A stretch of 43,991 nt of DNA. Origin: Escherichia coli O157 typing phage 9. The notes under the pieces were generated by a model. The model saw only the letters and a list, made by a program, of their open reading frames with translations, did no database searches and was not told the DNA's origin. Below are positions 876 through 39,374 of this stretch, piece after piece. The stretch lies in sequence record KP869107; one strand, given 5' to 3'. Every line of letters begins with the position of its first letter. Position 1 is the first letter of the stretch. The translations under genes and the position numbers were made by a program.

Positions 876-899
876 GAAAAGACCGCCGGATGGCGGTCT
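876..899 (-). terminator. Rho-independent terminator after the Cro-like gene
   Basis: Hairpin agaccgcc-ggat-ggcggtct followed by T-tract on the minus strand. Confidence 0.5.
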
Positions 900-920: not shown

Positions 921-1151
921 TCATGAGTAGAAGAAGTATGCCAGTTCTGCTTTTGAGCGCAGCCATTGTCTTGTTTTACAGGCTTTAAAAAGCCCATTCA
1001 TCAATACCTTACCTGGCATTTTGCGCTTACCTGTTAAGTGAGTCTGGATATAGTGACTCGTCGTTCCGGCTTCCTGTGCGAAGGCTTCACGCTCATCCGG
1101 AGTAAGTGCAAGCCAGTGCTTTTTGAAATCGAAATGTCCGTTATCGCTCAT
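921..1151 (-). CDS. Cro/CII-like HTH regulator, divergent from the repressor gene
   Basis: 76 aa, ATG at 1151; HTH-like segment LTPDEREAFAQEAGTTSHYIQTHLTGKR; divergent from the repressor-like gene across a 154-bp operator region. Confidence 0.5.
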   Translation of the reverse strand: MSDNGHFDFKKHWLALTPDEREAFAQEAGTTSHYIQTHLTGKRKMPGKVLMNGLFKACKTRQWLRSKAELAYFFYS

Positions 1152-1187
1152 AGCTATTGCCTGATATTTATTTCAGATAATAAATAT

Positions 1188-1250
1188 TCACCCATAAGGT
1201 AACAAAAATCAAGGATAGTTACCTATGGGGTGCATTTACCTGTTGGGTAA
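1188..1250. promoter_or_regulatory. Operator cluster: three TTACC-N5-GGTAA-type sites between the divergent repressor and Cro-like genes
   Basis: Sites at 1188-1202 (TCACCcataaGGTAA), 1219-1233 (TTACCtatggGGTGC), 1236-1250 (TTACCtgttgGGTAA). Confidence 0.5.
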
Positions 1251-1305
1251 TATTGCTTTAAATTGAATCATCTACTGATTCATATATGAGGCGATTTTCC
1301 AGAAA

Positions 1306-1890
1306 ATGAAAAGTATCCAGGACGTCCGCAGGCAAAATCTCAACGACTTGATCGACCGTGAATTCAATGGTGTTCAGACGCGGATGGCAGAAAAACTTGG
1401 AACTCAGGCAAATCTGGTAAACCGCTGGGCTCTTGGCAAGAAGGTTATCGGCGACCAGGTTGCGCGAAAAATTGAAGCTGCCGCCAATAAACCCCGTAAC
1501 TGGCTTGATATCGATCGCTCGCTTTCTCAGGAAGGTTTTCAGCCTGTCGGACCAAGCGACATTGGTCAACTGGCGGCTCACAACCTGGAACGCTGGATGA
1601 GCGAAAGCCGCGACCTTTCAACGCAGGGAAAACTTCACCGCGCATCCGGCGTCGCCCAGGTAACAATCAGCCGCCTGTTAAACAATGAGGTCAGCGTTTC
1701 CATTTCCACCCTGGAGAATGTTGCATCCGCATTTGGGCGTCACGGATATGAATTACTGATTCACCCGCACGACCCCGCGACTATCAACTATGACCGCTCG
1801 CGCTACGCATTGTTACCTGAAACAGAGAAGGCAAAGATCGAAAGTTACATTGAATTTGTCATCAACCAGAACGAAAAAAACAAACAATAA
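1306..1890 (+). CDS. Phage repressor-like protein with two HTH domains and no peptidase S24 (autocleavage) domain
   Basis: 194 aa, ATG at 1306; two HTH-like segments (MAEKLGTQANLVNRW... and ASGVAQVTISRLLN...); no Ala-Gly/Ser-Lys cleavage module recognisable. Confidence 0.55.
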   Translation: MKSIQDVRRQNLNDLIDREFNGVQTRMAEKLGTQANLVNRWALGKKVIGDQVARKIEAAANKPRNWLDIDRSLSQEGFQPVGPSDIGQLAAHNLERWMSESRDLSTQGKLHRASGVAQVTISRLLNNEVSVSISTLENVASAFGRHGYELLIHPHDPATINYDRSRYALLPETEKAKIESYIEFVINQNEKNKQ

Positions 1891-1910: not shown

Positions 1911-1935
1911 AAGCCGCCTTATGGCGGCTTTTTTA
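1911..1935 (+). terminator. Rho-independent terminator after the repressor gene
   Basis: aagccgcc-ttat-ggcggctt followed by ttttt. Confidence 0.55.
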
Positions 1936-1947
1936 TTGCCTATTCGA

Positions 1948-2024
1948 TTACCTAACGGGTAATTTTTTTAACTCATATCTATTGACATCAAACCAGATAC
2001 GCATAATTATTACCTCAACGGTAA
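1948..2024 (+). promoter_or_regulatory. Promoter/operator region of the recombination operon (TTGACA flanked by two perfect TTACC-N5-GGTAA sites)
   Basis: Sites at 1948-1962 and 2010-2024; TTGACA at 1983-1988; located just upstream of the 2044 and 2199 genes. Confidence 0.45.
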
Positions 2025-7092: not shown

Positions 7093-7339
7093 ATACCTTT
7101 AAGGTAATACCGTCACCTGTACCGCCGAAAAATATGGTGTAGAGTGAATAGAAATGAATACATAAAAACAAAAACCCTCTGTAAAAACAGAGGGTTAAAT
7201 TAGTATCTGAATAGGAATGAGTTGCTATGAGTTAGCTGTTAATCATTCCCACTCAATTATTTACGGCAACCATAACCAATTGAGTGATAACATTTTTCCA
7301 AAACTTCATTTTTTTAGTACCGTTTTATATACCGTCACC
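7093..7339. promoter_or_regulatory. Candidate attP / integrase control region
   Basis: Noncoding stretch upstream of int with direct repeats taccgtcacc (7108-7117 and 7330-7339), 9-bp inverted repeat cactcaatt/aattgagtg (7250-7286), and a TTACC-type site at 7093-7107. Confidence 0.3.
7165..7196 (-). terminator. Rho-independent terminator after the lysis cassette
   Basis: Hairpin aaccctctg-taaaaa-cagagggtt with T-rich tract on the minus strand. Confidence 0.5.
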
Positions 7340-9165: not shown

Positions 9166-9324
9166 AATTACCACCGTTTACTGTGCATAAAGAACCCCCT
9201 TAGTTGGTGAGTCCATTATACACAATAAACCATATATGGTTAAAATAACTTAGAATTGATCCTATCGAAATTACCCGATAGGTGATATTATTTATTGAAA
9301 TAATACAGCTTAACGTACCTGGTC

Positions 9325-12981: not shown

Positions 12982-13137
12982 GTTAAATCTCCAGATAGTC
13001 GCAGCACCCGTTGCGCCGCATATCCGGTTATTCTATTACCTGAAAAACCACATATGGATAGATAACACATAAATACGAACAGATATTACCTTTCAGGTGA
13101 TTCGCAAAACGTGCTGGATAGCAAACAAATTATTTGC

Positions 13138-13157
13138 TACTGTGTATTTATACAGTT
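13138..13157. promoter_or_regulatory. LexA (SOS) box
   Basis: tACTGTgtatttatACAGtt, 17/20 match to taCTGTatatatatACAGta; about 20 bp upstream of the ATG at 13177. Confidence 0.6.
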
Positions 13158-13176
13158 ATTGCATGGAGAAGATAAG

Positions 13177-13434
13177 ATGCCGCAGTATCACTATCCACTG
13201 GAAGACGGATTTACCGAAAGGATTCACACGCCGGGAGGCGTCAGGTCACTGGTGGAGGGATCGCACTTGATGAAATTACTCCGGGATCTCGATAAGGATG
13301 GATTTAATGTCGATGGCCCACTTGCCGAACTGACTGCACTGATTAACTACGTCACCAGCTCACAGATGTCCATGCGGGATCTGCAAACACATCTCGACTA
13401 TTGTGCCGAACAATTACGAAAACAAACCAGATAA
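13177..13434 (+). CDS. Hypothetical small protein downstream of the LexA box (candidate SOS-induced factor)
   Basis: 85 aa from ATG 13177 with GGAGAAG RBS (track ORF 13111-13434 starts earlier). Confidence 0.45.
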   Translation: MPQYHYPLEDGFTERIHTPGGVRSLVEGSHLMKLLRDLDKDGFNVDGPLAELTALINYVTSSQMSMRDLQTHLDYCAEQLRKQTR

Positions 13435-13452
13435 GGTTTGCAATTACCAAGT

Positions 13453-13493
13453 GGAGTGCTTATATTTACCGCAAAGGTAAATATAAGCACTCC
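13453..13493. promoter_or_regulatory. 41-bp perfect palindrome (18-bp arms, 5-nt centre) containing TTACCgcaaaGGTAA
   Basis: ggagtgcttatatttacc-gcaaa-ggtaaatataagcactcc read directly. Confidence 0.6.
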
Positions 13494-13569
13494 TATTGTG
13501 CCATAGTAATCGGGCACTGGCAAAATCCAGTGCCGGGATTGGCGTCCCGGGTTACTAAAAGGCGCATTC

Positions 13570-13746: not shown

Positions 13747-14331
13747 ATGACAGCTACAAAAAGCACGTCCATTTTTTCTTTCGAATCCCAAGCCGATATA
13801 CGGGTAATCGTCATTAATGGTGAGCCATGGTTTATCGCTTCAGATGTTTGTCGGGCTATAGGCATAGCAAACCATCGAGATGCTGTTCGAAAACTTGATG
13901 ATGATGAGAAGGGTGTCGCTTCAACCGACACCCCTGGCGGTGAGCAAGAATCGATCATCATCTCCGAGTCAGGACTCTACACACTGATCCTCCGCTGCCG
14001 CGATGCGGTGACACCAGGCACTATCCCCTACCGCTTTCGTAAATGGGTTACAGGTGAGGTTCTTCCTCAGATCCGCCGCACCGGAAGTTACATTAAAAAC
14101 TCGCTCCCGCAGGAAGAACGCATAAAGATGGTTGCCGACCAGGTAGCCAACGCCACGGCGTCAGCAGTAATGCAGGCGATGAAGATAGAGAACAAAACCT
14201 ACAGTGCCCCACTGAAGCCCGGCTACCGTAGCCTGATTCATTCGCCGTCTGGTGTTCTCGGCCTGACGGAGCACTCACTGCTGATGAACAGGACGACGGG
14301 CATGATGTATCAGGCGCGGCGGCGGAGCTGA
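13747..14331 (+). CDS. Bro-N domain protein / putative antirepressor
   Basis: 194 aa; N-term FESQADIRVIVINGEPWFIASDVCRAIGIANHRDAVRKL typical of Bro-N/antirepressor proteins. Confidence 0.65.
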   Translation: MTATKSTSIFSFESQADIRVIVINGEPWFIASDVCRAIGIANHRDAVRKLDDDEKGVASTDTPGGEQESIIISESGLYTLILRCRDAVTPGTIPYRFRKWVTGEVLPQIRRTGSYIKNSLPQEERIKMVADQVANATASAVMQAMKIENKTYSAPLKPGYRSLIHSPSGVLGLTEHSLLMNRTTGMMYQARRRS

Positions 14332-30688: not shown

Positions 30689-30725
30689 TTGACATTTAAC
30701 GCACGAATTATTACCTTTCAGGTAA
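30689..30725. promoter_or_regulatory. TTGACA plus perfect TTACC-N5-GGTAA site
   Basis: gttgacatttaacgcacgaattaTTACCtttcaGGTAA; same architecture as the site at 1983-2024. Confidence 0.4.
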
Positions 30726-33265: not shown

Positions 33266-33858
33266 TGATTACCATCCTGACGTTCTTTGAGTCGCTTCCT
33301 GGCTGCCGCTATGCGATCAGCAATTGTCACATTCACATTAACATCCAGGCGTTCTTTGAATGCGTTGACGTCGACGTGCTTACCAATCAGTTCGAGGTTC
33401 TTCACCTTGTCAGGCCATTTAATTTTTTTGAGGATTGTCTCTATCGAATCCTCGTTCATGTTCATGATGGTCGATGACAGATCAAAGCCACTAAGCGTAG
33501 TGCGCCAGATTTTCGGCCACTCACGGATTGGTTTAAGGCTCCCATCGTCGTTGAGGATATCGATCACGTCCATCTGGTCGATCTCCACCAGGCGCATGAG
33601 AACGTAATCAGCACTGACGCGCATTCGTTTGTTGCGCTCCTCCATCAACTCGGCAATCCGTTTTTGAATGCGTTCATCGCGCATCATGACACTGGCTTTA
33701 ACTGCCGCTGTATTTGGGGAGAATCCTGCGTTAATCGCTGCCTGAGTCTGGTTTTCAGGCGTTTTGATGTATGACTGGCAATAAGCCTCCTGCATTGCTG
33801 TGAGCGGCTTAAATTGCGTTGATTTGCGTTTATAGGTTTTAGGTTCAGCAGGCATCAT
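33262..33858 (-). CDS. terS: Terminase small subunit
   Basis: About 198 aa from ATG 33858 (GGTGG RBS); directly upstream of TerL. Confidence 0.6.
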   Translation of the reverse strand: MMPAEPKTYKRKSTQFKPLTAMQEAYCQSYIKTPENQTQAAINAGFSPNTAAVKASVMMRDERIQKRIAELMEERNKRMRVSADYVLMRLVEIDQMDVIDILNDDGSLKPIREWPKIWRTTLSGFDLSSTIMNMNEDSIETILKKIKWPDKVKNLELIGKHVDVNAFKERLDVNVNVTIADRIAAARKRLKERQDGNQ

Positions 33859-33862
33859 AACC

Positions 33863-33897
33863 ACCGTGGTAATAGTTACCGTTGTGGTAATAGTACC
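33863..33897. promoter_or_regulatory. Tandem 17-bp direct repeats containing GGTAATAG(T)TACC immediately upstream of terS
   Basis: ccgtggtaatagttacc / gttgtggtaatagtacc read directly. Confidence 0.4.
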
Positions 33898-33901
33898 ATG
33901 C

Positions 33902-33927
33902 AAAATAAAGCCGCCATAGTTGGCGGC
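33902..33927 (-). terminator. Rho-independent terminator between the early/middle genes and the late (terminase) operon
   Basis: gccgcca-tagt-tggcggc with T-rich tract on the minus strand. Confidence 0.5.
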
Positions 33928-33976
33928 AGTATTCAAAACCCATCAAATTCATCATGCATAATCTACTCGTAACATG

Positions 33977-37934: not shown

Positions 37935-38011
37935 TTACCTCTAAGGTAATTAAAAACCACATAAGACACGAAATCAATAGATCTAAGAATATTTTGTTAC
38001 CCATTAGGTAA
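37935..38011. promoter_or_regulatory. Two perfect TTACC-N5-GGTAA sites between the P-like and DUF1064 genes
   Basis: 37935-37949 TTACCtctaaGGTAA; 37997-38011 TTACCcattaGGTAA. Confidence 0.45.
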
Positions 38012-38849: not shown

Positions 38850-39374
38850 GCTTCAGGGCTGTTCCAGTGCGGAACGTTGTTATCAGGTAATGTTGATTGC
38901 TTCTGTCTGCTAATCTGCAGCCGCCTTGCCAGCTTCTGCTCCCACTGTGCCTGATGGTATGCCTTACCCTCAGCCATCCAGTAAATTCTGAACTCTGCAA
39001 GTTCCTGTGCCGTTGGCAGACTGTCCAGGTAGATCCCCTGCAATGAGCTTTTCCGAAGAAAGTCATCTGATGGCTGCCATTGTTCATGCATGACAAATTT
39101 GCCTAATTGCCCTGGCCCACCAAGAGGAACAAAGTTATTCATCACGGCGTTGTTTGCGCCGGGGTCATGATGCACAGAATCCCCGTTTTTTGTCCTGCTC
39201 TCCCTCTCTTGGTTAAATGACTGGTTATATGACTGGTTATATGACTGGTTCTGGATCCCGTTTTTGGGATCATTCAACATCCCGTTTTTGGGATCATTCA
39301 ACATCCCGTTTTTGGGTATATTCCCGTTTTCGGTAACATTACCGTTTTCGGGTTCATTGACCCCCTCTCGGTTG
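38831..39374 (-). CDS. Replication initiator O-like, C-terminal part plus iteron-encoded linker; N-terminus lost in the N run
   Basis: Minus-strand frame open from the N run through the iterons (MLNDPKNG repeats, NQSY repeats) to a stop at 38831; overlaps the P-like start. Confidence 0.6.
39093..39374. repeat. Direct repeat, copy 2 (truncated by N run at 39375)
   Basis: Identical to 1-270 apart from an extra 12-bp tandem unit at 39229-39240. Confidence 0.95.

Follow-up and report, generated by a model that had tools for sequence, protein, structure and literature searches.

Does the 154-bp gap (1152-1305) between the minus-strand ATG of p41 (1151) and the plus-strand ATG of rep (1306) act as the immunity switch of its phage, and if so, which protein reads the palindromes that lie within it? 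The window is the whole stretch of DNA analysed here, 43,991 nucleotides from Escherichia coli O157 typing phage 9 (KP869107). Escherichia phage phiV10 (Uetakevirus, epsilon15-like) is 100% identical to it over positions 800-2100, and the whole phiV10 genome corresponds to window positions 1-39374 in reverse complement and circularly permuted. The initial annotation had described the region as running from a Cro-like start at 1151 (minus) to a repressor start at 1306 (plus), and we confirmed both ATGs. Our sequence comparisons make it quite probable that this region is the primary immunity switch of phiV10 and that its three palindromes serve as Rep operators. The earlier proposal of a candidate switch built from a genome-wide motif is supported by a conserved tripartite array, by about ten other promoter regions that carry the motif and by overlap with promoter candidates.

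The intergenic array and its conservation

The genes, hairpins and sites that make up the locus are as follows.

880-899, minus strand: terminator-like hairpin 3' of p41, an annotated terminator in phiV10
921-1151, minus strand: p41 (PhiV10p41, homologue of epsilon15 gp39), 76 aa, first gene of the leftward early operon, labelled hypothetical in the phiV10 record
1188-1202: O1, TCACCCATAAGGTAA, one mismatch in one deviant half-site, 18.3 bits, in the spacer/-10 of the candidate leftward promoter
1219-1233: O2, TTACCTATGGGGTGC, two mismatches with the right half degenerate, 13.9 bits, abutting O3
1236-1250: O3, TTACCTGTTGGGTAA, perfect site, 21.8 bits, over the -35/spacer of the candidate rep promoter
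1306-1890, plus strand: rep (PhiV10p40), SPC32H-type repressor of 194 aa with a match to 5d50_A and to HTH families, labelled in the phiV10 record as an HTH protein similar to the epsilon15 repressor
1911-1930, plus strand: terminator-like hairpin 3' of rep

Every coordinate that had been given for the three TTACC-N5-GGTAA-type sites is exact, and the description of two adjacent sites with a third 16 bp away agrees with the measured gaps of 16 bp (O1-O2) and 2 bp (O2-O3). Around the predicted leftward -35, O1 and O2 together make up an imperfect inverted pair of 18 nt, a larger palindrome centred on that hexamer. We found 14 sites with at most one mismatch in the window, where the mean of 100 dinucleotide shuffles of the window is 0.79 and the shuffle maximum is 3. 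O2 taken alone is not significant because 40 window sites have two mismatches or fewer; with a weight matrix trained on the 14 sites other than O2, it is the top non-training match in the phage at 13.9 bits, the next scoring 9.7 bits. All 15 sites (the 14 plus O2) are non-coding in a genome of which 6.7% is non-coding (P ~2e-12 for 10 clusters), a count that holds once the phiV10 terS start is corrected by 27 codons from the alignment with epsilon15. A weak Rep-like site, TTACCTGTTAAGTGA (1027-1041, 9.0 bits), is seen within the p41 coding sequence, 161 bp from O1.

We examined the array in 17 loci whose repressor homologue is full-length (41-100% identity), from 6 phages (phiV10, Tyrion, BUCT554, a Klebsiella phage, epsilon15 and SPN1S), 6 bacterial genomes and 5 assembly contigs. 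Three sites lie upstream of rep in 17/17 of these loci, with a centre spacing of 30/31 bp for O1-O2 and always 17 bp for O2-O3. O3 is perfect and O1 has one deviant half-site in all 17. Most loci have an O2 with a degenerate right half, and the epsilon15/Klebsiella group has a perfect O2 in this position. In a 12-sequence alignment the half-sites are invariant in 25/30 columns, compared with 0/15 for the N5 cores (1193-1197, 1224-1228 and 1241-1245) and 25/109 for the other intergenic columns (Fisher 4.5e-8 and 2.2e-9, respectively). The E. coli prophage variants of the region contain no half-site changes, and in the most divergent of them 9/15 N5 positions are changed compared with 12/109 other positions (Fisher 6e-5). 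Invariant half-sites with variable cores are the pattern of a palindrome that would be bound by a dimer and whose core would make no contact, and the N5 cores may tune affinity through such non-contacted bases, as in the 434 operator, where affinity is set through bases without protein contact.

Relatives that share the N-terminal domain alone (Paraburkholderia, Hydrogenovibrio, Thiomicrospira) lack the motif; these are different proteins and were left out of the locus set. We also considered a fourth operator at the half-site GTTAGGTAA, 29 bp 3' of O3, and rejected it, as it scores 2.4-10 bits and occurs in the epsilon15/Klebsiella group only; the phiV10 clade has nothing comparable to this lone GGTAA half-site downstream of O3.

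Candidate promoters and sites elsewhere in the phage

The check by promoter prediction that the initial annotation had named came out divided, with positionally conserved candidates overlapping O1 (leftward) and O3 (rep) and consensus hits showing no excess (4 hits in the tool scan vs 3.2 expected). The candidates and the two inverted repeats of the gap are listed here.

1164-1187: AT-rich inverted repeat ATATTTATT/AATAAATAT, spanning the predicted leftward -10/start region
1177-1212, minus strand: candidate leftward early promoter (P_R-like) for p41, a consensus match with two hexamer options
1235-1264, plus strand: candidate rep promoter (P_RM-like), -35 TTTACC/TTACCT (the O3 left half) and -10 TAAATT at 1259-1264
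1264-1282: perfect inverted repeat TGAATCA-N5-TGATTCA between O3 and the rep start, found in the phiV10 clade only

For the leftward promoter, the first option pairs a predicted -35 TTGATT (1212-1207) with a -10 AATATT (1188-1183) across an 18-bp spacer, and the second, from the tool scan, pairs TTGTTA (1205-1200) with TATTAT (1182-1177) across 17 bp. The AAATCAA block that supplies TTGATT is invariant in 12/12 aligned loci, and TTG is present there in 5/5 further loci. Under either option O1 would fall within the promoter core and O2 would begin 6 bp upstream of the -35. The candidate rep promoter occupies the same position in the six phages and is the best candidate on the plus strand and the only positionally conserved one there; its hexamers are weak and a canonical -10 is missing there in several relatives. 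Other rep promoters, near the ATG or upstream of O1, were rejected for poor scores or lack of conservation. Relative to the predicted leftward start (~1176) the centres of O1, O2 and O3 lie near -19, -50 and -67, and relative to the predicted rep start (~1271) near -76, -45 and -28.

The AT-rich inverted repeat that had been placed at 1165-1186 is real and somewhat longer, with perfect 9-bp arms (1164-1172 and 1179-1187) around a 6-nt loop, and is mildly unusual in that arms of at least 9 bp arise in about 1% of mononucleotide shuffles. It is changed in relatives without compensation and missing from the epsilon15 group, and is probably the incidental AT-rich -10/start DNA of the leftward promoter and not a conserved part of the switch. 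As to the repeat at 1264-1282, one relative carries AATAA...TTATT there, so that both arms have changed and the symmetry is retained, and another has a 6-nt spacer. We also tried CTGA-N8-TCAG at 1161-1176 as a LexA box for p41 and discarded it (-0.4 bits vs 25.4 for the box at ant).

Beyond the gap, our survey supports the view that the motif of the switch marks about ten other phiV10 promoter regions, which include the following.

851-865: Rep-type site TTACCTTTGAGGTAC, with the p41 terminator on one side and p42/replication genes on the other
1948-2024, plus strand: P_L-like early promoter, TTGACA (1982-1987), 17-bp spacer, AATTAT (2005-2010)
7093-7107: Rep-type site ATACCTTTAAGGTAA, 43 bp upstream of the integrase start (7050, minus)
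9271-9285: Rep-type site flanked by the lysis cassette (p27 start 9165, minus) and by oac (start 9325, plus)
13466-13480: perfect Rep-type site abutting a -10-like TATATT (13461-13466), upstream of the Bro-N gene and downstream of ant
30711-30725: Rep-type site 91 bp before p06, where the portal/head gene block begins
33858-33890: two Rep-type sites at a spacing of 18 bp, which immediately precede the probable true terS start (33855, minus)
37935-38011, minus strand: second bracketed promoter, upstream of p45 (DUF1064), TTGATT, 17-bp spacer, TTTAAT

Single sites occur near promoter-like elements at p42/replication, lysis and the Bro-N gene, and that at 851-865 is 17 bp upstream of a -35-like TTGATC (833-828, minus). 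The P_L-like promoter lies beyond the rep terminator and is bracketed by perfect sites (1948-1962 and 2010-2024) 62 bp apart, whose homologues are annotated as 'protein_bind: repressor' in the epsilon15 record, and the sites of the p45 promoter (37997-38011 and 37935-37949) are likewise 62 bp apart. This bracketed-promoter cassette is found in relatives too. Across the phage family the leftward promoter has its two operators 30/31 bp apart, and for the P_L-like and p45 promoters this distance is 61-63 bp. Spacings of 31 and 62 bp are close to integral helical turns, whereas 17-18 bp are not. The position of 7093-7107 suggests direct repressor control of int, as judged from sequence, and the epsilon15 homologue of 30711-30725 is annotated as repressor-binding.

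Some features around these sites are recorded separately. In the epsilon15 record integrase and IHF binding sites are annotated in the region upstream of int. The phiV10 terS start (33853-33936) appears over-extended by 27 codons, as epsilon15 TerS aligns from M28 (ATG at 33855), and with the corrected start the pair at 33858-33890 is just upstream of the gene, after a terminator-like hairpin. A long palindrome (13448-13498) is centred on the site at 13466-13480, with 23-nt arms that are 91% complementary and a perfect 17-bp core, and is abutted by a promoter-like TTGCAA-17-TATATT aimed at the Bro-N gene (13747-14331).

Repressor, antirepressor and p41

When searched against the PDB with phmmer, Rep matched 5d50_A over residues 1-190 on 2-197 (E 4e-42) and, with its C-terminal part, 5d4z_A (E 4e-20). 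It is thus homologous over its full length to SPC32H Rep, which is described as having an N-terminal DNA-binding, a middle dimerisation and a C-terminal tetramerisation/Ant-binding domain and as sitting on palindromic sites as a tetramer with two DNA-binding domain pairs ~100 A apart (PMC9638917, PMC9986798). One of these sources, a 2023 paper, states that the repression mechanism 'has not been extensively characterized'. In Pfam, NCBIfam and PHROG the phiV10 protein reached HTH families only, and no peptidase S24 domain. A partner for it is encoded further along the genome.

13086-13434, plus strand: induction module, with a Rep site (13086-13100), a LexA box (13138-13157) and ant (13177-13434)

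Ant matches 5d50_E over residues 3-84 (E 2.9e-46), and 20 bp upstream of its ATG is the near-consensus LexA box TACTGTGTATTTATACAGTT, which scores 25.4 bits with a rough matrix built from LexA boxes and is the only strong box in the phage (next best 10.7). From this arrangement ant is presumably under LexA control and Rep is presumably inactivated by the antirepressor; by analogy with SPC32H, a phiV10 Rep tetramer would sit on palindromic operators and be released by Ant.

Functional data come from phage ZX5, which has an identical repressor: overexpression of the repressor abolishes free phage and lowers holin and endolysin mRNA by 99.97-99.99% (PMC9782041). That study took the Bro-N protein as the anti-repressor, makes no mention of LexA or SPC32H, and recognised neither the Ant/LexA module nor any operator (PMC9782041). 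We did not use its 'anti-repressor' data as evidence of autoregulation, since Bro-N rather than Ant was overexpressed and the legend of Fig. 9f contradicts the text.

The divergent gene product p41 has a predicted structure with a Cro/C1-type HTH domain, whose best structural match is the Cro-equivalent YdaS, with 18% identity and Foldseek E-values that are not significant. It reached no Pfam family, YdaS_toxin included, and carries only 'hypothetical' as a name in the databases; it does match PHROG 35 'transcriptional repressor' (E 5.6e-13).

In the mechanism we favour, O1 would lie inside the core of the leftward early promoter, which would serve p41 and then, past the terminator and a further operator, the replication genes, and O2 would flank the other side of the leftward -35 at 31 bp (three helical turns) from O1. 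Because O2 flanks the -35 opposite O1, Rep on both sites would bracket and occlude this lytic promoter. O3, always perfect and abutting O2, would cover the -35 of the likeliest rep promoter and provide for autoregulation of rep. Operators of the same type also flank or adjoin about ten other promoters, so that Rep would be a genome-wide silencer, acting at the P_L-like, p45, int, ant, Bro-N, lysis, terS and head promoters. For induction, LexA-controlled Ant would pull the Rep tetramer off the DNA without RecA cleavage, similar to the SPC32H homologue, and p41, as a Cro-type HTH protein in the Cro position, would probably counteract rep expression once the leftward promoter fires. Here the binding of Rep to O1-O3, both promoters, the pairing of O1 with O2 and any binding by p41 are what we infer from sequence.

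It is rather unlikely, in our estimate, that the sites are Rep operators without Cro-type competition and that p41 acts elsewhere, for example as a CII-like activator, as an Xre-type regulator of later genes or on group-specific palindromes; the region would then simply consist of a repressed lytic promoter and a negatively autoregulated rep promoter. The recognition helices do differ (TSHYIQTHL in p41, ANLVNRW in Rep), although lambda CI and Cro bind the same operators with different recognition helices. Plain negative autoregulation would predict that the best site, here O3, lies over the rep -35, as the candidate promoter places it, and other palindromes of the phiV10 clade are at hand in the region (1161-1176 and 1264-1282). 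On the other hand p41 is in the Cro position, its model has a Cro-equivalent as best structural match, and its HTH is invariant in 12 close loci, where the only invariant palindromes are the TTACC/GGTAA half-sites. The Serratia locus again fits the absence of competition, as its p41 helix has diverged (AKYIMVH) and the motif is unchanged.

We consider it very improbable that the motif is read by p41 or a host factor and that Rep binds something else. The p41 HTH is as conserved as the motif, but the divergence of the Serratia helix came without a change of motif, and the motif is found at late, lysis, int, ant and packaging promoters, as would be expected of a prophage master repressor and not of an early lytic protein. 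Moreover, the epsilon15 authors annotated the motif as repressor-binding, Rep homologues are reported as tetramers on palindromic sites, and overexpression of the identical ZX5 Rep silences lysis genes that have the motif upstream (PMC9782041). We also looked for covariation between helix and half-site as a means to assign the motif to Rep or p41, and this was uninformative: five further Rep homologues (52-64% identity; helix variants NLVSRW, NLINRW and NLISRW, plus an insertion) all have TTACC-N5-GGTAA, and covariation is silent on the reader because Rep helix, p41 HTH and half-site are all near-invariant across the family.

Finally, we give almost no credence to the idea that the three sites came together by chance or as a side effect of shared promoter sequence. 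The two mismatches of O2 and the 40 such sites in the window could be cited for it, but it is refuted by the standards of sequence analysis through the shuffles (14 sites vs 0.79), the restriction to non-coding DNA, the fixed spacing in 17/17 loci and the invariance of half-sites beside hypervariable cores.

With Rep operators as the preferred reading, a more specific and tentative idea, which we think somewhat unlikely, is that early promoters are bracketed by two in-phase operators with one Rep tetramer clamping both and the -35 buried between them. One tetramer could span two operators because the DNA-binding pairs of Rep are reported to be ~100 A (~30 bp) apart. In this scheme O3 would stand apart, as a high-affinity site for autoregulation or as a Cro target, and would couple rep expression to occupancy, and the strength of each site would be tuned by its non-contacted, hypervariable N5 core. 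If true, bracketing would be a repression geometry unlike the adjacent cooperative dimers of lambda. O3, the strongest-looking site, is on the rep side, a poor fit to a lambda-like order of occupancy.

Relation to known switches and spread

The closest known system is the Rep/Ant lysis-lysogeny system of Salmonella phages SPC32H/SPN1S (PDB 5D4Z, 5D50), reportedly the work of Kim & Ryu in 2013 and of Kim et al. in 2016. It shares with phiV10 a full-length Rep homologue (E 4e-42), an Ant homologue (E 2.9e-46) and a LexA box before ant, and the gene order, the three operators and their spacing are all the same in SPN1S. However, the SPC32H/SPN1S Rep is ~42% identical, and in SPN1S O1 deviates in the opposite half-site and O2 is perfect where that of phiV10 is degenerate. 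The epsilon15 record (AY150271.2) has seven 'protein_bind: repressor' sites (ATTACC-N5-GGTAAT), upstream of terS, gp3, the tailspike gene, gp37 (three) and the gene after the replication genes, at places homologous to those in phiV10. Between gp38 (rep) and gp39 only an IHF site is annotated there; the three sites are present, fail the strict 17-mer pattern and may therefore have been missed. On inspection of the region in the phiV10, epsilon15 and SPC32H records we found no operator annotated in the interval from rep to the Cro-type gene. Motif and repressor family are thus known, and the array at the rep/p41 junction is unannotated in the inspected records.

The likeness to lambda OR1-OR2-OR3 that had been proposed holds for layout, and does not extend to spacing, the order of site strength or the route of induction. 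In phiV10, as in lambda, 434 and P22, the repressor gene and the Cro-type gene diverge from a control region with three related palindromes, and past a terminator on the far flank of the repressor gene a P_L-like promoter carries further operators. In lambda OR the operators overlie two back-to-back promoters; those of phiV10 overlap two candidate promoters in this arrangement, and their positions relative to the predicted starts are close to the lambda layout. However, the phiV10 operators are spaced by 31 and 17 bp compared with the 23-24 bp centre-to-centre spacing of lambda OR, and the best-consensus site is on the rep side, opposite to lambda. Unlike lambda CI, the phiV10 repressor has no S24 autocleavage domain and its homologue is described as a tetramer that pairs DNA-binding domains of different dimers. 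Induction, as judged from the genes present, would be by antirepressor, whereas that of lambda is by RecA-stimulated self-cleavage of CI, and phiV10, unlike lambda, has operators at about ten further promoters, late ones included. Because of the lack of S24, the Ant/LexA module, the different spacing and the reversed order of site strength, phiV10 is not a lambdoid CI system.

P1 C1 and the repressors of mycobacteriophages L5 (gp71) and L1 are each a single repressor with many dispersed asymmetric operators, and phiV10 resembles them in the genome-wide sites of one repressor. The phiV10 operators are by contrast 2-fold symmetric, all non-coding and often placed as in-phase pairs (31/62 bp) that bracket a promoter. 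Dispersed operators are described for the mycobacteriophage repressors L5 gp71 / L1 in PMC1934351. On the side of p41, the comparison is with YdaS, the Cro-equivalent of cryptic prophage CP-933P (PDB 8C7K, 8CO2), at the 18% identity given above.

The feature is real and was, in essence, read correctly in the initial annotation. It adds one more example to a type of switch that is already known, within a phage family that has been characterised, and is in that sense fairly ordinary. With 1100-1360 as the query window, the immunity region is found at 95% identity or more in 539/5426 complete E. coli genomes, about a tenth, where the RefSeq labels of the flanking genes are 'HTH domain-containing protein' and 'hypothetical protein' only. 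With the map of operators and candidate promoters, direct targets are at hand for footprinting, for making phiV10-type phages virulent or fitting them with reporters, and for studies of prophage induction, and the operator pairs at fixed distances of 17, 31 and 62 bp offer a test-bed for how a Rep tetramer engages DNA.

Some last observations concern the make-up of the window itself. Positions 39093-39374 are a copy of 1-282, the join of the circularly permuted phiV10 genome, and from 39375 on the last 4.6 kb are an N-gapped scaffold with pieces of another phage and long broken ORFs. Compared with the phiV10 record, the first 800 bp of the window lack 12 bp, and the tandem repeats of p43 may account for the difference. 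These iteron-like repeats (118-254), a 24-bp unit ATCCCGTTTTTGGGATCATTCAAC x2.6 followed by an 18-bp unit x3.1, lie inside phiV10 p43, annotated as a DnaT-like replication-initiator gene, and are probably the phage origin, by analogy with lambda O, in which the origin repeats are within the replication-initiator gene.
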